Shown piece by piece: positions 250 through 42,734 of a DNA stretch of 64,000 nucleotides. Positions within the stretch are counted from its first letter, which is position 1, and every line of letters begins with the position of its first letter. The notes beneath the pieces are model-generated. The model ran no database searches. It had not been told where the DNA came from and saw only the letters and a list, made by a program, of their open reading frames with translations. Source of the stretch: Escherichia coli (GTDB lineage Bacteria; Pseudomonadota; Gammaproteobacteria; Enterobacterales; Enterobacteriaceae); NCBI RefSeq assembly GCF_041248615.1, contig NZ_CP158426.1. One strand, given 5' to 3'. Made by a program: the position numbers and the translations under genes.

Positions 250-296
250 TTTCTTATTCCTCTTTAAACCTGTCTGAACCGTTATCAACAGCGCAA

Positions 297-330
297 TAAA
301 AAAGCCCCCGGAAGGTGATCTTCCGGGGGC
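297..330 (-). terminator. his operon attenuator (rho-independent terminator hairpin)
   Basis: GC-rich perfect stem gcccccggaag/cttccgggggc with 5-nt loop followed by T-run on minus strand, between hisL and hisG. Confidence 0.8.
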
Positions 331-394
331 TTTCTCATGCGTTCATGCACCACTGGAAGATCTGAATGTCTTCCAGCACACATCGCCTGAAAGA

Positions 395-445
395 CTAGTC
401 AGGATGATGGTGATGATGGTGGTGTTTAAATTGAACGCGTGTCAT
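395..445 (-). CDS. hisL: his operon leader peptide (MTRVQFKHHHHHHHPD)
   Basis: 16-codon ORF with 7 consecutive His codons immediately upstream of attenuator hairpin and hisG. Confidence 0.9.
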   Translation of the reverse strand: MTRVQFKHHHHHHHPD

Positions 446-3112: not shown

Positions 3113-3195
3113 AGAAAAATTATTATGACAAGCCTCTCATTCTCTTGTCATTTCCCCCCCATTTAGGCACAATGCGCCGCTGTCAAAAAATGACT

Positions 3196-3231
3196 AAAAA
3201 CCGACGTTTCATCAGCGTCGGTTATTTTTTG
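3196..3231 (+). terminator. rho-independent terminator after yeeY
   Basis: ccgacg-tttcatcag-cgtcgg hairpin followed by ttattttttg. Confidence 0.6.
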
Positions 3232-3378
3232 CTTCAAACCAATCATTCATACCAAGAGGCCGGGCTTCGTACCGGATAGATATTTACTAAAAATCGACAG
3301 TTGTTGTCGCTGAGGAATCCAAAAAAATGGGGCAATTTTTTGCTTACGCGACGGTTATCACCGTAAAGGAGAATGACC

Positions 3379-4915: not shown

Positions 4916-5974
4916 ATGTTTTCAATGATATTAAGCGGGCTAATTTGTGGTGCTCTGCTGGGATTTGTCATGCAGCGTGGGCGTTTTTGCCTGACAGGTG
5001 GTTTTCGCGATATGTATATCGCGAAAAATAATCGCATGTTTTACGCCTTGCTGATTGCAATTTCGGTACAAAGCGTGGGGGTTTTTGCGTTAATTCAGGC
5101 GGGCCTACTGACTTACGAAGCCGGGGCGTTCCCGTGGCTTGGTACTGTTATAGGTGGGTATCTTTTCGGGCTGGGAATTGTTCTGGCGGGTGGATGTGCC
5201 ACCGGGACCTGGTATCGCGCGGGTGAGGGATTGATCGGCAGTTGGATCGCGCTTTTCACTTATATGGTGATGAGTGCGGTGATGCGTTCTCCACACGCCA
5301 GTGGTTTAAATCAAACCTTGCAGCACTACAGTACTGAACATAACTCTATTGCTGAGACTTTTAATTTGTCTGTGTGGCCGTTGGTTGCCGTTTTGCTGGT
5401 GATAACGCTCTGGGTAGTGATGAAAGAGTTGAAGAAACCAAAATTAAAAGTCGCGACCTTACCACCGCGCCGTACCGGGATCGCTCATATTCTGTTTGAA
5501 AAACGCTGGCATCCCTTTGTCACTGCTGTACTCATCGGTTTGATTGCGCTTTTAGCCTGGCCCCTGAGTGAAGCAACCGGACGCATGTTTGGGTTAGGAA
5601 TCACTTCCCCAACGGCCAATATTCTGCAATTTCTGGTCGCGGGTGACGTGAAATACATTAACTGGGGCGTTTTCCTGGTGTTAGGGATCTTCGTGGGGTC
5701 ATTTATTGCCGCCAAAGCGAGCCGTGAGTTCCGCGTTCGCGCTGCTGATGCACAAACAACATTACGTAGCGGGTTAGGTGGTGTACTGATGGGCTTCGGT
5801 GCCAGCATTGCAGGTGGTTGCTCTATCGGTAATGGACTGGTCATGACTGCAATGATGACCTGGCAGGGCTGGATTGGCCTTGTATTTATGATTCTCGGAG
5901 TCTGGACTGCGTCCTGGCTTGTGTATGTTCGACCGCAGCGTAAGGCGCGACTGGCAACTGCTGCGGCAAATTAA
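4916..5974 (+). CDS. yeeE: YeeE/YedE-family inner membrane transporter (thiosulfate uptake TsuA-like)
   Basis: 352-aa hydrophobic protein with two conserved Cys-containing motifs (GGCATG, GGCSIG); followed by TusA-like gene. Confidence 0.85.
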   Translation: MFSMILSGLICGALLGFVMQRGRFCLTGGFRDMYIAKNNRMFYALLIAISVQSVGVFALIQAGLLTYEAGAFPWLGTVIGGYLFGLGIVLAGGCATGTWYRAGEGLIGSWIALFTYMVMSAVMRSPHASGLNQTLQHYSTEHNSIAETFNLSVWPLVAVLLVITLWVVMKELKKPKLKVATLPPRRTGIAHILFEKRWHPFVTAVLIGLIALLAWPLSEATGRMFGLGITSPTANILQFLVAGDVKYINWGVFLVLGIFVGSFIAAKASREFRVRAADAQTTLRSGLGGVLMGFGASIAGGCSIGNGLVMTAMMTWQGWIGLVFMILGVWTASWLVYVRPQRKARLATAAAN

Positions 5975-5987
5975 GTAAGGTGTAAAG

Positions 5988-6215
5988 ATGGCGATTAAAA
6001 AGCTGGATGTGGTGACGCAGGTCTGTCCGTTTCCACTCATAGAAGCAAAAGCAGCACTGGCAGAAATGGCCAGCGGCGATGAGTTGGTAATTGAGTTTGA
6101 TTGCACCCAGGCAACTGAAGCAATCCCACAGTGGGCGGCAGAAGAAGGGCATGCCATCACCGATTATCAGCAGATTGGCGATGCAGCGTGGAGCATCACC
6201 GTTCAAAAAGCCTGA
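5988..6215 (+). CDS. yeeD: TusA-like sulfur carrier protein
   Basis: 75-aa ORF with CPFP motif (VCPFPLIEAK) characteristic of TusA family. Confidence 0.88.
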   Translation: MAIKKLDVVTQVCPFPLIEAKAALAEMASGDELVIEFDCTQATEAIPQWAAEEGHAITDYQQIGDAAWSITVQKA

Positions 6216-6227
6216 CTCAAAATTGTC

Positions 6228-6255
6228 CTCCGCCGTACTAGCGGCGGAGGCTTCA
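6228..6255. terminator. bidirectional terminator between convergent yeeD and sbcB
   Basis: cctccgccg-tactag-cggcggagg perfect hairpin. Confidence 0.55.
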
Positions 6256-6257
6256 CA

Positions 6258-7685
6258 TTAGACAATCTCTTCCGCGTACTGCCAAAGCGCTTTTAACAGC
6301 GCCACTTTTTCTTTATCGTCGGCATACTGCTGCGCCAGCATCTGAATCTCTTCTGCATAACCCTGCAAAAACTCTGGCGCGAAGACCTGGCGGCGGTGCT
6401 CCAGCCAGCGTTGCTGCTCGGCATAATCCAGCGTCCCCGGGAAGTTGCGCGCCCGATAATTGAACAACAGCTTTTCAATTCGTTTATCAACAAAAGTGAT
6501 ATCCAGTGCCGGTAAATTACGCGGCTCGGTTTCAAGCACAATTTTCATTGCTGCGCGATCGGCGTCACTGAAAAAGCCATTATAAAGCTGTGCATCCACG
6601 TTATCTGAAGGCGTAAACGGTTCGGCTTCCGCGAATATCGCCACCACTTTTTCACGCACTTGCGGATTTTCACGCAGAATTTTCAGGTTATCGAGGCAAT
6701 GCTGACGATTAATTCCCAGTCGGTCGGCATCTTCCGGGCGTAGCGTATTCGCCTGGGCCAGCACCGGACATTTATTGATATGCACCAGTTTAACCGGAAC
6801 GGCGGCGTTATCGCCAAGATCGGCTTTTGCGGTATATAGACGCTCGCGCAATGTGTCGCTATCCAGTTCCAGTAATGGCGAAATGTCTCCTGCCAAATCC
6901 ACCATAATTACGGCATTGCGATTTTCAGGATGCCACGCCAGCGGTGCCACCCAGCTGGTATTGCCGCGCCATGCCCCAAACATTCCGGAAACGTGAACCA
7001 GGGGTTTCATCTGCGGAACATCAATCAACGCCATCAGTTTGTGTTTATTACGATGGGTAAAGAGATAATCAAACAGGCGTGGCTGACGCGTTTTTACCAG
7101 TTTCGCCATCGCAATAGTGGCGTACACATCAGCCATCGCATCGTGGGCGTTGCTATGTTCAATACCATTCGCTTTGGTTAAATGCTCAAGGCGAAAGCTC
7201 GGTAGACCGTCATCATTTTCAGGCCAGTTTATTCCTTCCGGGCGCAGGGCATAACAGGCACGCATAACATCCAGTAAATCCCAGCGTGAGTTATCATGCT
7301 GCCAGCTCCAGGCGTAAGGATCGTAGAAATTACGATAAAAAACGTTGCGTGTGACTTCATCGTCGAAACGCACATTGTTGTAGCCCAGAATACAGGTCTT
7401 CGGTACGGTAAAAAGCGAGTGAATACGGGCGGCAAATGCGGCTTCGTTTTCTCCTTTCGCCCGAGCTTCCTGCGGGGTAATACCGGTAATTAATACGGCT
7501 CCAGGCTGGGGTAAATAGTCATCCGCGGGCTTGCAGTAAAAGACTTCGGGTTCGCCGATGACATTGAATTCGCTATCGGTGCGAATGGCTGCGAACTGTG
7601 CAGGGCGATCTAACGCGGGGTGCGTGCCAAAGGTTTCGTAATCGTGAAACAAAAAGGTAGATTGTTGCTTACCGTCATTCATCAT
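6258..7685 (-). CDS. sbcB: exodeoxyribonuclease I
   Basis: 475 codons from MMNDGKQQSTFLFHDYETFG (DnaQ-like exonuclease motif); ORF track has 16-codon upstream extension. Confidence 0.92.
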   Translation of the reverse strand: MMNDGKQQSTFLFHDYETFGTHPALDRPAQFAAIRTDSEFNVIGEPEVFYCKPADDYLPQPGAVLITGITPQEARAKGENEAAFAARIHSLFTVPKTCILGYNNVRFDDEVTRNVFYRNFYDPYAWSWQHDNSRWDLLDVMRACYALRPEGINWPENDDGLPSFRLEHLTKANGIEHSNAHDAMADVYATIAMAKLVKTRQPRLFDYLFTHRNKHKLMALIDVPQMKPLVHVSGMFGAWRGNTSWVAPLAWHPENRNAVIMVDLAGDISPLLELDSDTLRERLYTAKADLGDNAAVPVKLVHINKCPVLAQANTLRPEDADRLGINRQHCLDNLKILRENPQVREKVVAIFAEAEPFTPSDNVDAQLYNGFFSDADRAAMKIVLETEPRNLPALDITFVDKRIEKLLFNYRARNFPGTLDYAEQQRWLEHRRQVFAPEFLQGYAEEIQMLAQQYADDKEKVALLKALWQYAEEIV

Positions 7686-7887
7686 TAGGTTAAATCCGTT
7701 ATTTCTGCTGTCTGCCAGAGTATCAAATATCACCGTGCTAATCAGCTTTAGCGCAACAATTTGACAGCGAGTGGCAACAGATCATGTCAGATAAAAATGC
7801 GAGGGTAGTCACATTTTCTTGCACTTTATTCCAGCCAGTTCATAAGTATTTCCGTAAAAAGAACAGCTATTTGAAACTCCTGAGGGT

Positions 7888-9060
7888 TTGCTGTTGAAAC
7901 GCCGTCTTATTATTGCTGCTTCTTTGTTCGTTTTTAACTTATCGTCTGGTTTTGCGGCGGAAAACATTCCTTTTTCACCTCAGCCTCCAGAGATTCATGC
8001 CGGCTCCTGGGTATTGATGGATTACACCACCGGTCAGATCCTCACCGCGGGTAATGAGCATCAACAGCGCAATCCCGCCAGCCTGACAAAGCTGATGACG
8101 GGCTATGTCGTGGATCGCGCTATCGATAGTCATCGCATTACGCCAGACGATATTGTCACCGTGGGGCGCGATGCGTGGGCGAAAGATAATCCAGTGTTTG
8201 TCGGTTCTTCACTGATGTTTTTGAAAGAGGGCGATCGCGTATCGGTACGTGATTTAAGCCGTGGTTTAATTGTGGATTCCGGAAATGATGCTTGTGTTGC
8301 TCTGGCTGACTATATTGCCGGTGGGCAACGGCAGTTTGTTGAAATGATGAACAACTATGCCGGGAAGCTGCATCTCAAGGATACGCATTTTGAAACAGTG
8401 CATGGTCTGGATGCACCTGGCCAGCATAGCTCGGCTTATGATTTAGCCGTGCTTTCTCGCGCTATCATCCACGGCGAGCCCGAGTTTTATCATATGTACA
8501 GTGAGAAAAGCCTCACCTGGAACGGTATCACTCAGCAAAACCGTAACGGGTTATTGTGGGATAAAACCATGAATGTTGACGGCCTGAAAACGGGTCATAC
8601 TTCTGGTGCCGGGTTTAATCTCATTGCTTCGGCTGTGGATGGGCAGCGTCGTCTCATTGCAGTGGTAATGGGGGCTGACAGTGCAAAAGGTCGTGAGGAA
8701 GAGGCAAGAAAATTACTGCGTTGGGGGCAACAAAACTTTACTACGGTGCAAATTTTGCACCGTGGGAAAAAGGTCGGAACGGAACGCATCTGGTATGGCG
8801 ATAAAGAAAATATCGCCCTGGGAACGGAACAAGAGTTCTGGATGGTGCTACCGAAAGCCGAAATTCCACATATCAAAGCCAAATATACCCTTGATGGTAA
8901 AGAACTCACCGCGCCAATTAGCGCCCATCAGCGGGTAGGGGAAATTGAACTTTACGACCGTGATAAACAGGTGGCGCACTGGCCGCTGGTTACCCTGGAA
9001 TCTGTCGGGGAAGGCAGCATGTTTTCTCGCCTGAGTGATTATTTCCACCATAAGGCCTGA
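7888..9060 (+). CDS. dacD: D-alanyl-D-alanine carboxypeptidase (PBP6b)
   Basis: 390 codons, TTG start; signal peptide then SLTK active-site serine motif (NPASLTKLMT) and SGN, KTG motifs. Confidence 0.9.
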   Translation: MLLKRRLIIAASLFVFNLSSGFAAENIPFSPQPPEIHAGSWVLMDYTTGQILTAGNEHQQRNPASLTKLMTGYVVDRAIDSHRITPDDIVTVGRDAWAKDNPVFVGSSLMFLKEGDRVSVRDLSRGLIVDSGNDACVALADYIAGGQRQFVEMMNNYAGKLHLKDTHFETVHGLDAPGQHSSAYDLAVLSRAIIHGEPEFYHMYSEKSLTWNGITQQNRNGLLWDKTMNVDGLKTGHTSGAGFNLIASAVDGQRRLIAVVMGADSAKGREEEARKLLRWGQQNFTTVQILHRGKKVGTERIWYGDKENIALGTEQEFWMVLPKAEIPHIKAKYTLDGKELTAPISAHQRVGEIELYDRDKQVAHWPLVTLESVGEGSMFSRLSDYFHHKA

Positions 9061-9146
9061 CCTTTCTTTTGCAGCAGACTGGCAGGAGTGCGAGTCTGCT
9101 CGCATAATCAACACTCATTCCTTGTGGTTTTAATATTGCAACTATA

Positions 9147-9162
9147 CTGTATATAAAAACAG
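9147..9162. promoter_or_regulatory. LexA (SOS) box upstream of sbmC
   Basis: ctgtatataaaaacag matches CTGT-N8-ACAG consensus, 17 nt upstream of sbmC start. Confidence 0.75.
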
Positions 9163-9178
9163 TATTAATGGAGGCGTC

Positions 9179-9652
9179 ATGAACTACGAGATTAAGCAGG
9201 AAGATAAACGTACCGTTGCAGGTTTCCATCTCGTTGGCCCGTGGGAACAGACGGTAAAGAAAGGCTTTGAGCAGTTGATGATGTGGGTAGATAGCAAAAA
9301 TATTGTGCCGAAGGAGTGGGTTGCTGTCTATTACGACAATCCAGATGAAACACCCGCCGAAAAATTACGCTGCGACACCGTCGTGACGGTACCGAATAAC
9401 TTTACGCTCCCCGAAAACAGTGAGGGCGTCATTCTGACAGAAATTTCAGGTGGTCAGTATGCGGTGGCGGTGGCTCGTGTAGTCGGTGATGATTTTGCTA
9501 AACCCTGGTATCAGTTCTTTAATAGCCTCTTGCAAGACAGTGCTTATGAAATGTTACCAAAGCCCTGTTTTGAGGTTTATTTGAACAATGGCGCGGAAGA
9601 TGGGTACTGGGATATCGAAATGTATGTTGCGGTGCAGCCAAAACATCACTAA
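9179..9652 (+). CDS. sbmC: DNA gyrase inhibitor SbmC (GyrI)
   Basis: 157-aa [27 protein letters not shown]...; LexA box upstream. Confidence 0.9.
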
Positions 9653-9850
9653 TTCATCTCAGGGCGGTGTGTTGACGCGAAGACCACTCTTTTTTTTGAA
9701 AGCGAAAAGAGTAAGATGCGCCTTTCAATTTTTTCGCTCCTGCCGGGAAATTACACTGTTCCCGGTTTGTCCGTCGGATAATTCAGAGGCGCGCCTTCTG
9801 GCCGACAGATGAGTTATGAGCGCTTTTAATCTTCATTACGGAGTTTCTGC

Positions 9851-10909
9851 GTGCGTGCCGATAAGTCATTAAGCCCGTTTGAAATCCGGGTATACCGCCA
9901 TTACCGCATTGTGCATGGTACTCGGGTCGCGCTGGCATTCCTGCTCACTTTTCTCATTATCCGCCTGTTTACTATCCCGGAAAGCACCTGGCCGCTGGTC
10001 ACCATGGTGGTGATTATGGGGCCAATCTCGTTCTGGGGTAACGTTGTCCCTCGTGCCTTCGAACGTATTGGCGGTACGGTGTTGGGGTCGATTTTAGGTC
10101 TTATCGCTCTGCAACTGGAGTTAATCTCGTTACCGCTGATGTTAGTCTGGTGCGCGGCGGCGATGTTTCTTTGCGGTTGGCTGGCGCTGGGCAAGAAACC
10201 GTATCAAGGTTTATTGATTGGGGTGACGCTGGCAATTGTTGTTGGTTCCCCGACAGGTGAAATTGATACGGCGTTATGGCGAAGCGGCGATGTGATCCTC
10301 GGCTCTTTACTGGCAATGTTGTTTACCGGTATCTGGCCACAACGAGCGTTCATCCACTGGCGCATTCAACTGGCAAAAAGTCTGACCGAGTATAATCGGG
10401 TCTATCAATCTGCATTCTCACCGAACTTACTCGAACGCCCACGTCTGGAAAGCCATCTACAAAAACTCCTGACCGATGCCGTGAAAATGCGTGGGCTGAT
10501 TGCGCCCGCCAGCAAAGAAACCCGTATTCCAAAATCGATATATGAAGGTATCCAGACCATTAATCGCAATCTGGTTTGTATGCTGGAGTTGCAAATCAAT
10601 GCATACTGGGCCACGCGCCCCAGCCATTTCGTATTATTGAACGCGCAAAAACTGCGTGATACCCAGCATATGATGCAGCAAATACTGCTGAGCCTTGTTC
10701 ATGCGCTATACGAAGGTAATCCGCAGCCGGTTTTTGCCAATACGGAAAAATTGAACGATGCTGTGGAAGAGCTGCGTCAGTTGCTGAATAACCACCATGA
10801 CCTGAAGGTTGTGGAAACACCAATCTATGGTTATGTGTGGCTGAACATGGAAACGGCACATCAGCTTGAGTTGCTATCGAATCTGATTTGCCGGGCCTTG
10901 CGCAAATAA
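9851..10909 (+). CDS. yeeA: inner membrane protein YeeA (FUSC/aromatic acid exporter-like family)
   Basis: 352-aa ORF, GTG start, N-terminal half hydrophobic; conserved position between sbmC and yeeX. Confidence 0.8.
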   Translation: MRADKSLSPFEIRVYRHYRIVHGTRVALAFLLTFLIIRLFTIPESTWPLVTMVVIMGPISFWGNVVPRAFERIGGTVLGSILGLIALQLELISLPLMLVWCAAAMFLCGWLALGKKPYQGLLIGVTLAIVVGSPTGEIDTALWRSGDVILGSLLAMLFTGIWPQRAFIHWRIQLAKSLTEYNRVYQSAFSPNLLERPRLESHLQKLLTDAVKMRGLIAPASKETRIPKSIYEGIQTINRNLVCMLELQINAYWATRPSHFVLLNAQKLRDTQHMMQQILLSLVHALYEGNPQPVFANTEKLNDAVEELRQLLNNHHDLKVVETPIYGYVWLNMETAHQLELLSNLICRALRK

Positions 10910-20223: not shown

Positions 20224-22045
20224 GAATCGACTCCTTGTGCCAGGCGATGAGTAGCCCAGTAGCTACCGCGTTGCGCGGACCTTCGCTACCACGGATATTC
20301 CCCCGTCCGGCGACCAATCGATAATGCGCCAATGCATCGGTGACTAACTGCGGTACTTCGAAATCCAGCGAAGAACCGCCCACCAGAACGACGAACGGAA
20401 TATCGCGAATATTTCCGGCAGGGCTTACCTGACGTAGCGCGCGCAGGGCATTGGTTACGAAGACACGCTCTTTCGCACTGCGGCGGACAGCGCGTACTTT
20501 TTCCAGCGTCAAATCACCGGGAATGGGCACCAGTTCGTCGGGTTTCACTACACAGACGCGGGCAAATACATGGGGGGATAGGGGAGTAGGGAAGAACTGA
20601 ACGCTGCCATCTTCATGGCGTAAGTGGAACAGGCTTTCTACTTTTGCCAACGGGTACTTTTTGATTTCTTCTGCCAGATAACGATCATTTAAGCCCAGCT
20701 CACGAGCGATAATCATCGTTACCATGTCGCCCGCTCCCGCAAGGTGAGTGGCAACAATTTCTCCTTTCTGATTGATGATGGAGGCATCGGTAGAGCCTGC
20801 ACCTAAGTCCAGAATTGCCAGTGGACGTGTGGTTCCAGGGGTAGTCAAGGCCCCCTGAATGGCGGCTTCTGCTTCTGCGCCTCCGACCTGAACATCAACA
20901 TGCAGTTTTTGCTTAATTTCACTGGCGATCATTGCCATTTGCAGACGGTCGGATTTCACCATAGAGGCAATACCCACAGCCTGTTCCAGTGAAAATTCAC
21001 CTGCCAGACCGCCGGTTACGCTGACGGGGACAGAGGTATCTATCGCCAGCAAATCCTGAATAAAAATTTCGTTGCTGGGTTTGTTGGTCAGTTCCGCCAT
21101 GGTCTGGCGAACATGTTCCAGCATTCCGCCGATGTTGGTGCCTGGTTTTCCCGTCACGTTTTCCAGTTTTGGGCACTCACCGACCGCTTTCATAATGGCA
21201 TCGGCACCAGCAGCTACATCAACGCGCGTTGTGCGCCCGGCAGAAAGCAGTTCGATATTTCCGGCGGGTATCGAACGGGCTTTAACGTCGCCAGAAGGCG
21301 TTTTCACTACCACTGCTGAACGGTTGCCGATTAGCGCCCGCGCGACAGGAACAATATTTTTAGTCTCTTCAGCATTGAGGGCGAAAACGGTGGCAATCCC
21401 ATACGGGTTAGACAGGGTTTCGATAACTTTCCCGGGAACGGCAACTTCAATTGCAGCCAGCATGCCGAGCGGAATACGATCGATGTAGAGGACTTCATCA
21501 ACAATAGGTACAGCAATTTCCAGGCGGTTACTGACCAGCACGCCATCGTCGCGTTGCAGAATAACGCCAGTCAGCTGATATCCGGCACGTACGGAGGCGT
21601 TTATCATCGTCGCGATATCGGCAAAATCAAATGCCGATGACACCACCAGGATGTAAGGTGTGTCCGCCGGGCGTGTTAATAACTCTTGCGGAGTGATGGT
21701 GAGCCCTACGCCCAGCCCCACTCCGCCCGGAGTTTTCGGGTTGTGACCGATCATGGTTGATTCAGTGATGATGGTTTCAGTGATGGTTTCCATCGCCACA
21801 TCACCAATGACCGGAGTTGCTTCGTTGATACGAATAAGCGAAATATCGCTAACATTGATGCCGACTTTTTTCGTTGCCTGTGCGAGCGCCTCCTGAATAC
21901 CATGGACGTTACGCAACGTACCTTTAATTCCGGTGGTTTCCGCCAGGGCGCTACTCACGAACGACAACTCTCCAGTTGCACTGAGCGTTGCCAGCGCAAC
22001 CTCTGTTGATGAGTTGCCGATATCAATGCCTGCTATATATCGCAT
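20213..22045 (-). CDS. pduG: diol dehydratase reactivase large subunit PduG
   Basis: 610-aa ORF MRYIAGIDIGNSSTEVALA... (ASKHA/actin-like ATPase N-terminus). Confidence 0.9.
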   Translation of the reverse strand: MRYIAGIDIGNSSTEVALATLSATGELSFVSSALAETTGIKGTLRNVHGIQEALAQATKKVGINVSDISLIRINEATPVIGDVAMETITETIITESTMIGHNPKTPGGVGLGVGLTITPQELLTRPADTPYILVVSSAFDFADIATMINASVRAGYQLTGVILQRDDGVLVSNRLEIAVPIVDEVLYIDRIPLGMLAAIEVAVPGKVIETLSNPYGIATVFALNAEETKNIVPVARALIGNRSAVVVKTPSGDVKARSIPAGNIELLSAGRTTRVDVAAGADAIMKAVGECPKLENVTGKPGTNIGGMLEHVRQTMAELTNKPSNEIFIQDLLAIDTSVPVSVTGGLAGEFSLEQAVGIASMVKSDRLQMAMIASEIKQKLHVDVQVGGAEAEAAIQGALTTPGTTRPLAILDLGAGSTDASIINQKGEIVATHLAGAGDMVTMIIARELGLNDRYLAEEIKKYPLAKVESLFHLRHEDGSVQFFPTPLSPHVFARVCVVKPDELVPIPGDLTLEKVRAVRRSAKERVFVTNALRALRQVSPAGNIRDIPFVVLVGGSSLDFEVPQLVTDALAHYRLVAGRGNIRGSEGPRNAVATGLLIAWHKESIHGK

Positions 22046-27363: not shown

Positions 27364-27565
27364 CGAAATAATCTGGCAGTTATAAACGTTTATTTTTTTA
27401 CTGTTTGTGATCTGCTTTCCGAACTTATTAAAAAGTCTCCCGCTTCATGGAGGCTTTTGTTATTGTCCTTTGTGCTTCTCGTCAGTAAATCATCAGGGAT
27501 GATGTGAAGATTAAATGTAAAACAATTGTTTTGCTATAACAATAAATTAACTGGGAGGTTTTATC

Positions 27566-28480
27566 ATGATTTCTGCGGCGACACTTAATTCAGAACTCAT
27601 TAATAAAATCGCGCAGGATTTTGCGCAGGCGACCAGCCTTGCGGTTGTCGTGGTCAATATTCACGGCGATGAAATTTCCGAGCTGTTTAACTTCACTCCA
27701 TTTTGTCAGATGATGCGGCAACACCCTCAGCTAAGCACTCGATGTCGCATGAGCGATCGTTGTGGGGGCCTGGAAGCCTCTAAATCCGATCAGCCTTGTA
27801 TTTATCGCTGTCATGCCGGATTAACCGATTTCTCTATTCCACTGGTAATCGCCGGGCATTTAGTCGGTTTTGTATTGTGCGGGCAAGTTCGTCTGCGTAA
27901 TGATGATGTCGATTTGGTCGATATTCTGAATGTCGATGATTGCTGGCAGGCAGATCCCGAATTACTTAATGAATTCCGCAAAGTTCCTGAGATGGATTAC
28001 TCAAGAGTTATGGCCTCTGCTGATTTGTTGAAGTTGATTGTGGAAAATTGCCTCAAAAAACAACTCAATTTTGTGGTTATTAAAGAGAACAAATTTCAGT
28101 CAGATTCGGTGCGCCAGACTCGTGCGCCTAATCCCCACGACAATAAAATGAAAAAAGCTTTACGCTATATTGATGCGCATTTATCAGACGATTTGCGTCT
28201 GGAAGATGTCGCCTCGCACGTTTATCTAAGTCCTTATTATTTCAGTAAGTTATTCAAGAAATACCATGGAATCGGTTTTAATGCGTGGGTAAACCAACAA
28301 CGGATGGCCAGCGCTCGTGAGTTACTGTGCCATAGTGACTGGAGCATCGCCAGTATTGCGCGTAATTTAGGTTTTTCGCAAACCAGTTATTTTTGCAAAG
28401 TTTTCCGTCAGACTTATCAGGTTACGCCGCAGGTGTATCGACAGCAAGTGAGTGAAAATGCGGTGATGGAAACGGTATAG
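27566..28480 (+). CDS. pocR: AraC-family regulator of pdu/cob expression PocR
   Basis: 304-aa ORF, C-terminal AraC-type HTH (YLSPYYFSKLFKKYHGIGFNAWVNQQRM...), position next to pduF. Confidence 0.88.
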   Translation: MISAATLNSELINKIAQDFAQATSLAVVVVNIHGDEISELFNFTPFCQMMRQHPQLSTRCRMSDRCGGLEASKSDQPCIYRCHAGLTDFSIPLVIAGHLVGFVLCGQVRLRNDDVDLVDILNVDDCWQADPELLNEFRKVPEMDYSRVMASADLLKLIVENCLKKQLNFVVIKENKFQSDSVRQTRAPNPHDNKMKKALRYIDAHLSDDLRLEDVASHVYLSPYYFSKLFKKYHGIGFNAWVNQQRMASARELLCHSDWSIASIARNLGFSQTSYFCKVFRQTYQVTPQVYRQQVSENAVMETV

Positions 28481-28584
28481 AGTAAATGCCCCAAAAAAAG
28501 AGGACGGTTTAAATAAACTCTGCAATGAATAATTAACGTTATTTACCTGTTATGGGAAAAGTGAAATCAGCTCATAACATACGC

Positions 28585-28735
28585 TGACAGGTGTGGCACA
28601 TTTGTGCCTGGGAAGAGGGTGAAAATCCCTCGCAGCCCCCGCTGCTGTAATGCTGACAAACCCGAAAATGCCACTGATCGCGAGATTGGGAAGGTCGGGA
28701 GAGGATGACGCTAAGCCAGAAGACCAGCCAGTCAG
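28585..28735 (+). promoter_or_regulatory. cobalamin (adenosylcobalamin) riboswitch
   Basis: Conserved core gggaagagggtgaaaatccctcgcagcccccgctgctgtaa and B12-box-like gccactg...gggaaggtcgg...agccagaagaccagcc; same position as the Salmonella cob operon leader. Confidence 0.75.
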
Positions 28736-28964
28736 TCAATACCAACAACTTCGGTGGGAAGTGGGTTGCCCGGAAGCGTCCGGTAGAGTACCGGCGCGTC
28801 TTTATACCCCTACCACCCTGAAAGGATCAGGGTATGGCGGCATCATTTAGTTCTTTCATCGCAGTGCCGACAGGCACCAGGGCTGCACTTAAGGTGTGGC
28901 AATCTTGTTTCATGGCTCATCAACCAGACCGCCATTACAGGAAACTAAGTGGAGGGCGAGAGGC

Positions 28965-29402
28965 ATGAAAACGATAAAACCCGAATCGATAGCTCTTTTT
29001 TGCCTCTTATCTGGAGATGTGGATCTGGCGAAACATTTGGCTGAAATATTGCCAATAACTTGTTTTGTTGGTGAGGACTGGCAGCAAGATTTCCAGCCTC
29101 TTGACGGTGGGCCTGTGCAATCGTTATCAGATGTGTATGGCGATTATTCAGTGCTGCTATTGATAGCAGCTGAAAGCGAGATATCCGTACCAGAATGGCT
29201 CGCTCATTCTGAAGGAACGACGGTAATTGTGATTGCAGAACACAATACCCGTTTGCTGACTGGTCCGGCTGGTGGGGCTGTAGCATTGATCCATTATCTG
29301 AATGAAATCTGTCATTCCAGAGAAACCGCTGTCAATGACGCATTTTGTCGTACGTTAACACGAGGAAGTCTGGCTATTCCGCAATGCCATCTTCTTTCGT
29401 AA
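28965..29402 (+). CDS. hypothetical protein (146 aa) between B12 riboswitch and cobU
   Basis: ORF with SD-like gagagg 3 nt before ATG at 28965 (ORF track starts at 28896); no family recognised by eye. Confidence 0.45.
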   Translation: MKTIKPESIALFCLLSGDVDLAKHLAEILPITCFVGEDWQQDFQPLDGGPVQSLSDVYGDYSVLLLIAAESEISVPEWLAHSEGTTVIVIAEHNTRLLTGPAGGAVALIHYLNEICHSRETAVNDAFCRTLTRGSLAIPQCHLLS

Positions 29403-29535
29403 TGGATTGAGAATGCTGGATTTTTAATTATATTACGCGCAGTATTAATCGCGTAAATGTTTTGCGGTCAGCAACGGTGGGGGATCCATTGTTCTGTTCA
29501 ATGAATACCATCATACAATTGAATCAGGAGTCGGT

Positions 29536-30081
29536 ATGATGATTTTGGTGACAGGTGGAGCACGGAGCGGGAAGAGTCGCCACGCAGAGGCGCTTATTGG
29601 GGACTCTTCACAGGTTCTGTATATCGCCACCTCGCAAATCCTTGATGATGAGATGGCTGCACGGATAGAACATCATCGGCAAGGCCGCCCGGCGCACTGG
29701 CGCACGGTGGAGCGCTGGCAACATCTTGATGAATTAATTCATGCAGACATTAACCCGCATGAAGCTGTGTTGCTGGAATGCGTTACAACAATGGTGACTA
29801 ATCTGTTGTTTGATTATGGCGGCGATAAAGACCCTGATGAATGGGATTATCAGGCGATGGAACAGGCGATTAATGCTGAGATTCAGTCGTTGATTGCTGC
29901 CTGCCAACGTTGCCCCGCGAAGATTGTATTAGTGACTAACGAAGTGGGAATGGGGATTGTGCCGGAGAGTCGTCTGGCACGACATTTTCGTGATATTGCC
30001 GGGCGGGTAAATCAGCAGCTGGCCGCTGCGGCAAATGAAGTGTGGCTGGTGGTTTCGGGTATTGGAGTAAAAATCAAATGA
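29536..30081 (+). CDS. cobU: adenosylcobinamide kinase / adenosylcobinamide-phosphate guanylyltransferase
   Basis: 181-aa ORF with P-loop [10 protein letters not shown]. Confidence 0.92.
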
Positions 30082-30821
30082 GTAAATTATTTTGGGCGAT
30101 GCTCTCTTTTATTACGCGTCTGCCTGTGCCGCGTCGCTGGTCCCAGGGACTGGATTTCGAGCATTATTCTCGCGGTATTATTACTTTTCCTTTAATTGGT
30201 TTATTGCTTGGCGCGATTAGCGGGCTGGTCTTCATGGCGTTGCAGGCATGGTTTGGCGTACCACTGGCGGCACTGTTTAGCGTGCTGGTGCTGGCGCTGA
30301 TGACCGGGGGATTCCACCTGGACGGCCTCGCCGATACCTGTGATGGCGTATTTTCTGCACGTAGCCGCGATCGCATGTTGGAAATCATGCGTGATAGCCG
30401 TTTAGGCACCCACGGCGGTCTGGCATTGATTTTTGTTGTACTGGCAAAGATTCTGGTGTTAAGCGAGCTGGCTTTGCGTGGCGAACCGATCCTTGCATCG
30501 CTGGCGGCAGCATGCGCGGTCAGCCGCGGGACTGCCGCATTATTGATGTATCGTCATCGTTATGCCCGGGAAGAAGGACTTGGCAATGTGTTCATTGGCA
30601 AAATTGATGGGCGACAAACCTGCGTCACACTCGGCTTAGCCGCTATTTTTGCTGCCGTATTATTGCCGGGTATGCATGGTGTGGCTGCTATGGTGGTGAC
30701 GATGGTGGCGATTTTCATCCTCGGTCAGCTTCTCAAACGTACGCTGGGCGGGCAAACCGGCGATACGCTGGGAGCAGCCATAGAGCTTGGTGAACTGGTC
30801 TTCCTGCTGGCACTGCTATAA
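30078..30821 (+). CDS. cobS: adenosylcobinamide-GDP ribazoletransferase (cobalamin synthase)
   Basis: 247 codons from [18 protein letters not shown]; polytopic membrane protein; overlaps cobU stop. Confidence 0.9.
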
Positions 30822-30832
30822 AGAGACGTGAC

Positions 30833-31912
30833 ATGCAAATACTTGCCGATTTACTGAATACGATCCCAGCCATCGATCCTACCGCTATGTCGCGTGCACA
30901 ACGGCATATTGACGGGTTACTCAAACCTGTTGGTAGCCTGGGAAAGCTGGAGGCGCTTGCCATACAACTGGCGGGAATGCCGGGGTTGAATGGCATACCG
31001 CATGTGGGCAAAAAAGCGGTACTGGTTATGTGTGCCGATCACGGCGTCTGGGAGGAAGGGGTCGCTATTTCCCCAAAAGAAGTGACAGCCATTCAGGCTG
31101 AAAATATGACCCGCGGAACAACCGGCGTGTGTGTGCTGGCAGCACAAGCGGGCGCTAACGTCCACGTAATTGATGTTGGTATTGATACTGCTGAGCCTAT
31201 CCCCGGGCTTATCAACATGCGTGTCGCACGAGGTAGCGGCAATATTGCTTCAGCTCCGGCAATGAGTCGCCGTCAGGCTGAAAAGTTGCTTTTGGTCGTC
31301 ATATGTTATACGCGGGAGCTGGCAAAAAACGGTGTCACGCTGTTTGGTGTAGGTGAACTGGGGATGGCAAACACGACACCGGCAGCGGCAATAGTCAGCA
31401 CAATCACTGGCCGGGATCCTGAAGAAGTGGTTGGGATTGGCGCAAACCTGCCGACAGATAAACTGGCTAATAAAATTGATGTTGTGCGTCGGGCGATTAC
31501 GTTGAATCAACCAAATCCTCAGGATGGTGTTGATGTCCTGGCAAAAGTGGGTGGATTTGATTTGGTCGGAATAGCTGGAGTGATGTTAGGTGCTGCTTCC
31601 TGCGGTTTACCCGTGTTGCTGGATGGATTTCTTTCTTATGCTGCTGCGCTCGCAGCCTGCCAGATGTCTCCTGCAATCAAACCGTATCTCATTCCTTCTC
31701 ACTTGTCGGCAGAAAAAGGCGCGCGTATAGCGCTGTCGCATTTGGGGCTGGAGCCTTATCTCAATATGGATATGCGTTTAGGTGAGGGGAGTGGTGCAGC
31801 TCTGGCGATGCCCATCATCGAAGCTGCTTGTGCGATATACAACAACATGGGCGAACTTGCTGCCAGTAATATTGTTCTACCGGGGAATACGACTTCTGAT
31901 TTGAACAGTTAA
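30833..31912 (+). CDS. cobT: nicotinate-nucleotide:dimethylbenzimidazole phosphoribosyltransferase
   Basis: 359-aa [35 protein letters not shown]... Confidence 0.92.
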
Positions 31913-32964: not shown

Positions 32965-33040
32965 TGGCTCCTCTGACTGGACTCGAACCAGTGACATACG
33001 GATTAACAGTCCGCCGTTCTACCGACTGAACTACAGAGGA
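32965..33040 (-). tRNA. asnV: tRNA-Asn (GUU)
   Basis: 76-nt sequence on minus strand tcctctgtagttcagtcggtagaacggcggactgttaatccg...gagcca with anticodon loop cuGUUaa. Confidence 0.95.
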
Positions 33041-40650: not shown

Positions 40651-41416
40651 GAATCCCTCTGCAACAAAAACAAACAGTCTCCGGCGTGTGCTTTTTGGCT
40701 GCGCCAGAACGATACCTTTACGCCGGAGTGGTAGTTTGTTGAGGTTTAGGGAGTTTCAGGCTGTACGCAGTACAGACTGCCTGCGAAGCAGGAGTGTCTC
40801 CGGGGCTTCTTGCCCCCCTCGGTATCGATCTTTTTCTCCTTTACTCTTAGCTGACAGCGGCCCCAAAGGGCATGTCAGACGGCGGAAATATGGCGCAGGC
40901 CAGAACTGGCGCGGCTTGTGGCGGTGAGTTGTGCGGCGTCACTTTGCTTTTTCGCTGGCGCGACCAAAGTGACGCCTCGTCTGGTGCAGGGGGTAAACGT
41001 TACGTTTCTGGTGCAGGGTGACGGTCACGCGGCAGCAAAGCCTGACGGCAATGCAGGCCGCAGCCCGTCAATGTAAGGCGCTGGTTGTCAGCAGAAGATA
41101 AAACCCGGCAAAGCCAGAGTGTCAGCCCGTAAAGCCGGGTATCTGGTGCAGTGATGGTGTATATGTACGTCAGTCTCAGATGCAGGTATTTTTGCATCCC
41201 CGGCGTTTTCAGAGATCAACGCCGGTAAAGGATGCCATGCTGGCGAAGCCAGGCGCTTCTTTCAGACGTGAAGCGACAAAGGGACTGCCCGGAGGCAGTT
41301 TGTTGCAGGCGGGAGACTGCGCCATTATTTCTGGTGCAGGAAGGAAAAACTGTTTCCGGGTTTAAAAGATTGTTTGCTTACCTGGTGACGGAAAAACTGC
41401 CGCGCTTCGCTTGTCT

Positions 41417-42213: not shown

Positions 42214-42734
42214 AAGGCCGTCTACAGTGAGTGATAAATATTCCAGCCACTGGAGAGGCTAATCTCACGGGTGGTGGAACCGGACGGGGTTAGCCTTACC
42301 AGCCTCACTGACACTGGCGCGTCTTTCGACGCCCCCGCCCGATCCCGCCATTGAGATGAGACCGTGCGCGACACACAAATATTGTATCGTCAGTGAGGAT
42401 CTTCAGGAGGCTAATCCCGACGCCTGATTTTGCAGGCGCGGCGCAACAATACAATGTTCGGTAATTTTCAGCAAGAGGTTTAGCGGAAGCAGACGCACAG
42501 GAAAATACAATCACGCGATAAATATTAAATACAATTATATTTATATAAAATATATATTGAGCAATATGCAGACACTTTCCAGTAAATATCCTGTCAGTTA
42601 ATTCGTCCCGTTGATATCAGTCAAAAAAATAAATGTAAAAAGAGCGTATTTCGTTTCATACAGTAACGTTATTTATCATTTTGTCCGGTGTCGCCAGCAT
42701 CAGGCCAGATGAACCATAAAAAAGGATATCAGCG

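Follow-up and report, generated by a model that had tools for sequence, protein, structure and literature searches.

Why would an Escherichia coli genome keep a cobalamin riboswitch after losing the biosynthetic genes that the switch once served, and does the retained switch still control the salvage genes downstream of it? We addressed this question for the pocR-cobUST locus in a 64,000-nucleotide (nt) stretch of E. coli contig NZ_CP158426.1 (the window), in which an earlier note, made from the sequence alone, had recognized a clear B12 riboswitch core after pocR. An Infernal scan of the whole window against Rfam, the check named in that note, bore this out: RF00174 (Cobalamin; model length 189) matched on the plus strand with 109.4 bits (E = 1.7e-26; gathering score 31.5 bits) over model positions 1–189 of 189, that is, as a complete aptamer, which begins 91 nt 3' of the pocR stop codon (Table 1). 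The start at 28585 given earlier lies 13 nt inside the aptamer, whose first position is 28572. As the note had also proposed, cobU, cobS and cobT follow downstream, intact and with strong Pfam matches, and, having lost the cbi genes but kept cobUST, the strain is a cobinamide/B12 salvager, in keeping with the established role of E. coli as a salvager of B12 precursors. The riboswitch itself is an ordinary member of its family that is already annotated: the 'cobalamin riboswitch' label of the Prokaryotic Genome Annotation Pipeline (PGAP)/RefSeq is present in strain XJ6.1, which is 100% identical to the window across a 2.5-kb query (27566–30081) and in which RefSeq labels this locus 'cobalamin riboswitch', 'hypothetical protein' and cobUST. 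It is the operon-decay state in which the switch has been kept that is unusual and instructive; full-text literature searches did not find a description of the relic locus.

We compared the locus with the complete pdu-pocR-cbiA..P-cobUST loci of Salmonella (L086) and Klebsiella (L087). The alignment to the Salmonella pocR-cbiA leader suggested in the earlier note proved colinear, with window positions 28568–28842 matching Salmonella 21235–21518 at 82% over 285 nt and homology ending 9 nt inside cbiA; on this evidence, the element is an ortholog of the Salmonella enterica cob leader. Both lie after pduF-pocR on the same strand, and both present the aptamer, a CAACAACUUCGGUGGGAAGUGGG element, a hairpin at the ribosome-binding site (RBS) and the cbiA ATG. 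The CAACAACUUCGGUGGGAAGUGGG element was invariant in our multi-genus alignments, and the RBS hairpin (ACCCUG at 28815–28820, a loop AAAGGAU with the Shine-Dalgarno (SD) sequence at 28821–28827, and CAGGGU at 28828–28833, with the ATG at 28834 directly after) retained its pairs in 10–12 of 12 sequences from four genera (Escherichia, Salmonella, Klebsiella and Raoultella). The expression platform is accordingly predicted to be able to occlude the RBS.

To gauge selection on the switch, we compared seven cbi-less Escherichia lineages, among which the synonymous divergence of neighboring genes is 0.23–0.61. All seven copies of the switch scored 105.6–112.8 bits against the full RF00174 model. Variable columns made up 36 of the 265 in the aptamer and platform, compared with 131 of 300 in adjacent DNA (Fisher p = 1.6e-15) and 283 of 551 third codon positions of flanking genes (p = 3e-27). 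Mean pairwise divergence was 0.047 for the aptamer (89% of columns invariant across the 7 lineages) and 0.060 for the expression platform; the corresponding values were 0.144 for the pocR-aptamer spacer, 0.152 for the body of the mini-ORF (open reading frame, ORF) that follows the switch, 0.14–0.24 for the subsequent cbiG fragment (CbiG') and 0.17–0.25 for third codon positions of flanking genes. Overall, the aptamer and platform evolve about 3–4 times slower than flanks and third codon positions. Because this conservation exceeds that of flanks and third codon positions in lineages that lack cbi genes, we conclude from the alignments that purifying selection maintains a probably functional switch in genomes long devoid of the cbi genes. 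Such selection lends only indirect support to adenosylcobalamin (AdoCbl) binding and a resulting change in expression. That the riboswitch might instead be a non-functional fossil that has not yet decayed is very improbable: its original cargo (cbiA-cbiP) and the Salmonella-type promoter block are indeed lost, and most E. coli lineages have deleted the switch, but across lineages with a synonymous divergence of 0.3–0.6 the element has changed far less than the immediately adjacent DNA and synonymous sites, a contrast that contradicts this explanation, and all seven copies reach at least 105.6 bits over the full model.

Next, we reconstructed how the operon decayed. The window holds no intact cbi gene between the aptamer and cobU, so that the earlier claim of an absent cbi block stands, except that the cbiA-cbiP block measures 14.1 kb in Salmonella (L086 21510–35629) rather than ~17 kb. 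Likewise, a cbiG-cbiK block was found in 0 of 5,426 complete E. coli genomes in a search able to detect it at about 65–70% identity or better. What separates the switch from cobU is not a single 146-codon ORF, as first described, but three relics: a 44-codon cbiA' mini-ORF, CbiG' (the former 'orf146', 145 residues plus stop) and the 3' end of cbiP (cbiP'). Fragments of cbiA, cbiG and cbiP survive, and the cbi block was therefore lost in two deletions, which measure about 5.9 kb and 7.6 kb in Salmonella (~13.5 kb together). The first took out everything from about codon 16 of cbiA up to and including cbiF, and the second everything from about codon 125 of cbiG up to and including most of cbiP; the locus is what decay has left of an ancestral Escherichia pdu-pocR-cob operon. 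Whereas Salmonella carries 17 cbi genes and cobUST behind its leader, the window carries two relic ORFs and cobUST, and the first ORF under the switch is no longer cbiA but a chimera of 44 codons. A tblastn search for the origin of 28879–28960 and 29322–29397 with 17 Salmonella/Klebsiella Cbi proteins returned noise (E > 0.01) except for CbiG 1–119, and the 3' end of cbiF was not recognized in either segment.

The relic frames are themselves conserved in outline. In the mini-ORF, DNA homology to Salmonella extends through cbiA codon 3, and 7 of 15 residues match CbiA 1–15; its ATG adjoins the RBS hairpin of the riboswitch and its stop overlaps the next start as AUGA, as expected of a relay architecture. 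The length of 44 codons and the ATGA overlap are kept in all seven Escherichia lineages, as is a CbiG' length of 144–145 codons. CbiG' matches positions 1–125 of 351 of NCBIfam NF004463 with 68.4 bits, below the equivalog cut-off of 546; it is 43% identical to Salmonella CbiG residues 1–119 and 37–38% identical to genuine CbiG, and has a 7-residue internal deletion. None of the Pfam domains CbiG_N, CbiG_mid and CbiG_C was matched at E ≤ 10 in the E. coli, E. marmotae and E. albertii ORFs, in a search that recovered all three domains from Salmonella CbiG. An AlphaFold2 (AF2) model of CbiG' had a predicted local distance difference test (pLDDT) score of 68 and a disordered tail; a Foldseek search of the Protein Data Bank (PDB) with this model gave only generic alpha/beta matches (E > 1e-3, template modeling (TM) scores 0.3–0.44), and a sequence search of the PDB with CbiG' found nothing.

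When the observed 73–93 substitutions were placed at random, CbiG' stayed open in only 7–11% of trials per lineage, and the product over four lineages was about 5e-5, a figure that is conservative in the number of changes used and somewhat overstated in that it treats lineages as independent. The ratio of nonsynonymous to synonymous divergence (dN/dS) of CbiG' was 0.32–0.57, compared with 0.02–0.17 for pocR and cobUST. Codons 1–70 showed a protein-like periodicity (0.092, 0.070 and 0.174 at codon positions 1, 2 and 3, respectively), and codons 120–145, the C-terminal 26, looked neutral. Taken at sequence level, these patterns indicate that selection keeps the frames translated and weakly keeps the N-terminal sequence of CbiG', but not the enzymatic function of CbiG. 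E. coli populations contain some truncated CbiG' alleles and one fused allele. The 188-residue protein P0001, a single metagenome-derived sequence, joins the mini-ORF in frame to CbiG' (…DRHYRKLWRARGMKTIKPES…), so a small indel near the junction can merge both relic frames. The cbiP' remnant was identified with an nhmmer profile of the cbiP 3' end (E = 9e-4 in the window; 4.5e-5 and 9.6e-5 in the sister lineages L006 and L008, respectively) and is colinear with Salmonella and Citrobacter cbiP at 59–62% identity; it holds a palindrome, TACGCG-N10-CGCGTA, as well as the SD of cobU.

We then considered whether the retained switch acts on cobUST. The reading that we favor, at a rough probability of 45%, is that of a functional translational OFF switch that makes the read-through part of cobUST expression repressible by B12, atop a basal expression independent of the switch. 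Transcripts from the pduF and pocR promoters would continue across the 91 nt after pocR and enter the switch. When B12 is lacking, the hairpin at the RBS would open and the mini-ORF and CbiG' would be translated, and the transcript, stabilized and protected, would extend into cobUST; expression of the salvage genes would gain a component that follows pocR transcription. Binding of AdoCbl would block translation of both relic frames, and the read-through transcript would be lost, be it via the hairpin and U-tract inside the mini-ORF, via Rho or via decay; basal expression of cobUST would come from a promoter-like site in the cbiP remnant. In this scheme, the read-through out of pocR, the polarity exerted on cobUST and the physiological rationale are inferred. 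The hairpin inside the mini-ORF appeared in both the minimum free energy (MFE) and centroid folds and was terminator-like in our scan, and its stem is kept across lineages via pairing-compatible changes (−4.6 to −9.6 kcal/mol). The earlier note had named a terminator or promoter between the switch and cobU as a feature that would uncouple them. The terminator scan found no convincing intrinsic terminator between the switch and cobU, and no terminator-like site between the CbiG' stop and cobU; a promoter-like site matching 10 of 12 positions (TTGAGA-16-TATATT, 29407–29434) is present in the cbiP' remnant, where it arose by AT-enrichment relative to intact cbiP (TTAGCA...TCCATT in Citrobacter).

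This promoter-like site is one of several observations that weigh against full control of cobUST by the switch. cobU has its own AGGAG SD, 134 nt 3' of the CbiG' stop, so that translational coupling cannot reach it, and K-12-type strains, which lack the switch, share the spacer before cobU at 97% identity. Lawrence and Roth (1995) reportedly found that K-12 expresses functional cobUST from several promoters. CbiG' has a GGAGG of its own 9 nt 5' of its ATG; independent initiation is therefore possible, and its dependence on the mini-ORF is not assured. The hairpin and U-tract at 28882–28910 form a weak element, above all in this strain, in which the tract, T5–T8 in other lineages, is only TTGTTT. 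The relic region contains no C-rich, G-poor stretches (C/G ≤ 1.0) and so gives no compositional support for a Rho utilization (rut) site; Rho-dependent polarity is possible, but the compositional search did not speak for it. Upstream, the promoter and terminator scans found neither a promoter-like site nor a plus-strand terminator in 28481–28571, and by alignment the window lacks a ~190-nt block 3' of pocR that is common to Salmonella, Klebsiella and a pdu island of E. coli strain 48. In Salmonella (L086 21000–21027), this block includes a Pcob-like promoter, TTGTCA-16-TAAAAT, with the same site in Klebsiella; its position relative to cbiA agrees with a Salmonella leader of ~468 nt. Given the absence of a Pcob-type block, the switch is reachable only via pocR read-through or an unrecognized promoter; read-through is probably the route, and pocR the probable source of the transcripts that enter the riboswitch. 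Finally, about 88% of complete E. coli genomes do without the switch.

The earlier proposal that the switch gates cobUST is therefore retained in part. The switch is genuine and selected and no convincing intrinsic terminator was found between it and cobU, but the promoter-like site, the SD of cobU, the missing Pcob block and the situation in E. albertii (below) speak against full gating. It is plausible that B12 represses cobUST in part, namely its read-through component; the switch probably modulates rather than fully gates cobUST, and repression of cobUST is probably not the whole reason for its retention.

To place these observations in context, we surveyed the locus across Escherichia. 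The pocR-riboswitch-ORF-cobU arrangement was present at ≥ 80% query coverage in 641 of 5,426 complete E. coli genomes (~12%), and the leader itself in 645. The same architecture occurs in six further Escherichia lineages, namely the "E. coli E69" lineage, E. whittamii, E. albertii, E. marmotae and two others; being common to seven Escherichia lineages, it predates the divergence of the genus. E. coli K-12 occupies the same chromosomal position next to ldtA, nac and cbl, and shares cobUST and the 236 nt 5' of cobU (29300–29535) with the window at 97–99% identity. Unlike the window, K-12-type strains have insertion sequence (IS) elements (IS5/IS2/IS4) in place of pdu-pocR-riboswitch-mini-ORF, followed by only the last ~50 codons of CbiG' and then cobUST; this CbiG' remnant (L002/L003, about 4966–5163) is annotated as a 'cobalamin biosynthesis protein' pseudogene and has lost 9 nt within the GPAGGAVAL motif. 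In type C (L004, E. coli CH423, 5707–6341), what is left of pduV runs directly into CbiG' near codon 34, the outcome of one clean deletion of the whole pdu-pocR-riboswitch stretch.

That K-12-type and type C strains manage without the switch, that cobU has a promoter-like site and an independent SD, and that no rut-like composition was found would also fit an OFF switch for the relic ORFs only. cobUST would then be insulated on its own promoter, and selection would act against wasteful or harmful translation or against pocR read-through. We regard this as improbable: it leaves the open frames and the ATGA conservation in seven lineages unexplained, junk would be silenced more cheaply by loss of a start codon, and Raoultella has the same switch design feeding real genes.

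Strain 48 (NZ_CP166879, L005 1563–24331) carries a second pdu locus on an unrelated island, with IS66, iha and espI on its flanks, in the order pduW..A, pduF, pocR, riboswitch, ~1.3 kb unannotated, a 144-residue CbiG N-terminal ORF, a second riboswitch and a second btuB. The island riboswitch is 86% (blastn) or 82% (genome-wide search) identical to that of the window. Its CbiG fragment matches CbiG_N, the only one of the three Pfam domains found in it, with 73.7 bits and is 55–58% identical to genuine CbiG and 37% to the CbiG' of the window. The island locus was found in 1 of the 5,426 complete genomes, and we rejected the idea that island-type CbiG' forms a widespread stand-alone family, since it has only 3 homologous clusters and is rare.

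The clearest challenge to a role confined to cobUST comes from E. albertii, which retains a switch scoring 112.8 bits and both relic ORFs intact although cobU has decayed and cobT is deleted, a pattern that counts against the favored reading. Its cobU, a pseudogene long in decay, survives as two fragments at 62–65% identity that carry a frameshift and an in-frame stop and lack the first 38 residues. Private changes in E. albertii amounted to 8 of 265 in the aptamer and platform, which are not accelerated, compared with 17 of 128 in the mini-ORF, 37 of 435 in CbiG' and 15 of 133 in the cbiP' spacer, which are. cobS is intact in E. albertii (L088, L092–L097), with dN/dS of 0.02 at a synonymous divergence (dS) of about 1.2 relative to other Escherichia; it is a strongly divergent allele, perhaps acquired by recombination from a distant donor. 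Neutral decay was considered for this fast-evolving cobS (p = 0.18) and rejected, as dN/dS of 0.02 with dS of about 1.2 denotes selection. Nor can E. albertii be taken as a clean natural experiment, with cobS under selection and its six samples forming one near-clonal group. Together, the pattern is suggestive rather than decisive against a cobUST-only purpose; as E. albertii keeps the switch without cobU and cobT, gating of cobUST cannot be assumed to be the sole reason for retention.

The switch may be functional and selected for a purpose other than cobUST, such as B12-dependent control of CbiG' as a domesticated small protein, or control of the pduF-pocR transcript (its 3' end, its stability or its output), which would let B12 availability bear on propanediol utilization. 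We consider this unlikely, but of the alternatives it deserves the most weight. It would account for the conserved aptamer and platform of E. albertii, in which cobU and cobT are dead, and is consistent with the dN/dS of CbiG' and the protein-like periodicity of its first 70 codons, with a switch placed 91 nt after pocR and no promoter or terminator found in between, and with the strain-48 island, which also keeps pocR-riboswitch and a CbiG N-terminal ORF without other cbi genes. It also finds a parallel in Listeria, in which B12 riboswitches that act on pocR or eut regulators are known (PMC5282855; see also PMC9943018). Set against these points, CbiG_N has decayed past Pfam detection with its 7-residue deletion, the C-terminal 26 codons of CbiG' are neutral, truncated and fused alleles circulate in E. 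coli populations, and the AF2 model is of moderate quality, with uninformative structural matches. In addition, there is no evident way for a downstream sense-strand switch to control pocR, and the E. albertii samples are a single near-clonal group in which cobS is still intact. A more elaborate variant, which strikes us as quite doubtful, is that the switch and the two coupled frames were co-opted as a unit beyond cobUST, as a B12-status relay on the pduF-pocR transcript or as a riboswitch-controlled, CbiG-derived small protein. If true, co-option would explain why E. albertii keeps the switch and frames after losing cobU and cobT, and a relay would link B12 availability to propanediol use in a genus unable to synthesize B12.

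Two known systems help to judge the favored model of partial cobUST repression. Its closest precedent, by analogy, is the Mycobacterium tuberculosis ppe2 B12 riboswitch, which controls an upstream ORF (uORF; uPPE2) whose AUGA overlap is essential for ppe2 expression, in an operon that continues into the disrupted-B12-pathway relics cobQ and cobU (PMC11260477). Both loci combine a B12 switch, an AUGA-overlapping first ORF and B12-pathway relics within the operon. However, the M. tuberculosis switch is of class IIb (PMC11260477), whereas the window matches the Salmonella-type leader; ppe2 has no SD and is uORF-dependent by experiment, whereas CbiG' has its GGAGG and is known from sequence alone; and the uORF is a dedicated one in M. 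tuberculosis, in contrast to the gene fragments of the window.

The second system is a reduced cob operon of Raoultella (L031, L033, L034 and L040, about 5900–10550), with the order cobD, riboswitch, cbiA' mini-ORF, cbiB, cbiP and cobU. Here, too, a homologous riboswitch (89.8 bits) precedes a retained cbiA ATG, which opens a 20–21-codon ORF with an ATGA overlap with cbiB. The Raoultella deletion is independent and smaller (internal to cbiA, plus cbiC-cbiO), the coupled cbiB is functional, and neither pocR nor pdu lies immediately upstream in the stretch examined. We regard Raoultella as an independent parallel that, by analogy, supports the cobUST-control model.

Table 1 Features of the pocR-cobT interval, in window positions
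Feature	Position	Strand	Basis or remarks
pocR, AraC-family regulator of pdu/cob	27566..28480	+	Pfam PocR, HTH_AraC, HTH_18; RefSeq annotation in XJ6.1
pocR-aptamer spacer, short	28481..28571	+	lacks the ~190-nt block shared by Salmonella, Klebsiella and the strain-48 island
Cobalamin (AdoCbl-type) riboswitch aptamer	28572..28746	+	RF00174, full model
Expression platform	28747..28836	+	CAACAACUUCGGUGGGAAGUGGG element, variable hairpin, RBS-sequestering hairpin
cbiA' mini-ORF, 44 codons	28834..28968	+	starts at ancestral cbiA ATG; TGA overlaps next ATG (ATGA)
Hairpin, AAUC and U-rich tract inside mini-ORF	28882..28910	+	candidate weak terminator or pause site
CbiG' relic ORF, 145 codons	28965..29402	+	N-terminal ~120 residues of cobalt-precorrin-5A hydrolase and an unrelated tail
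cbiP' 3' remnant, spacer before cobU	~29398..29539	+	nhmmer cbiP 3' profile, colinear alignment
cobU, adenosylcobinamide kinase/guanylyltransferase	29536..30081	+	Pfam CobU 216 bits; dN/dS 0.12–0.17
cobS, cobalamin-5'-phosphate synthase	30078..30821	+	Pfam CobS 187 bits; dN/dS 0.02–0.06
cobT, nicotinate mononucleotide (NaMN):5,6-dimethylbenzimidazole (DMB) phosphoribosyltransferase	30833..31912	+	Pfam DBI_PRT 405 bits

The genes on either side of the relic region are well preserved. pocR has a dN/dS of 0.03–0.06 across Escherichia, and the proteins of the cobinamide salvage operon cobUST are intact and under purifying selection (dN/dS 0.02–0.17). The Rfam scan also returned several RNAs elsewhere in the window. 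Between pduF and pocR, the enterobacterial small RNA (sRNA) STnc230 (71 bits) lies in antisense orientation at 27422–27505 (minus strand), where it overlaps a terminator-like hairpin of 10 pairs at 27431–27458 (plus strand), and is found in the same place in all six other Escherichia lineages. A histidine operon leader at 296–419 (minus strand, 131.6 bits) and the sRNA STnc240 at 3158–3232 (plus strand, 68 bits) place the window between his and yeeO. On the other side, an EFASI RNA (100.8 bits) at 40706–40833 and a C4 antisense RNA (62 bits) at 42267–42355, both on the minus strand, lie downstream of three tRNA matches with identical scores at 32968, 35377 and 37198, two of which are annotated as tRNA-Asn in XJ6.1; together, these suggest a mobile element integrated at a tRNA gene.

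Together, these data make the locus a clear natural example of the decay of a riboswitch-controlled operon, in which the sensor, the start codon and the stop/start junction outlive the genes they served under measurable selection, and have done so independently in Escherichia and Raoultella. For annotation, they are a warning that 'hypothetical protein' and 'cobalamin biosynthesis protein' labels at this locus denote cbiG fragments. Commensal and pathobiont lineages, NC101 and MP1 among them, belong to the pdu-positive E. coli; for these strains, the data suggest that cobinamide salvage may be tied to induction by propanediol and damped by B12, a hypothesis that would be relevant to competition for corrinoids in the gut.

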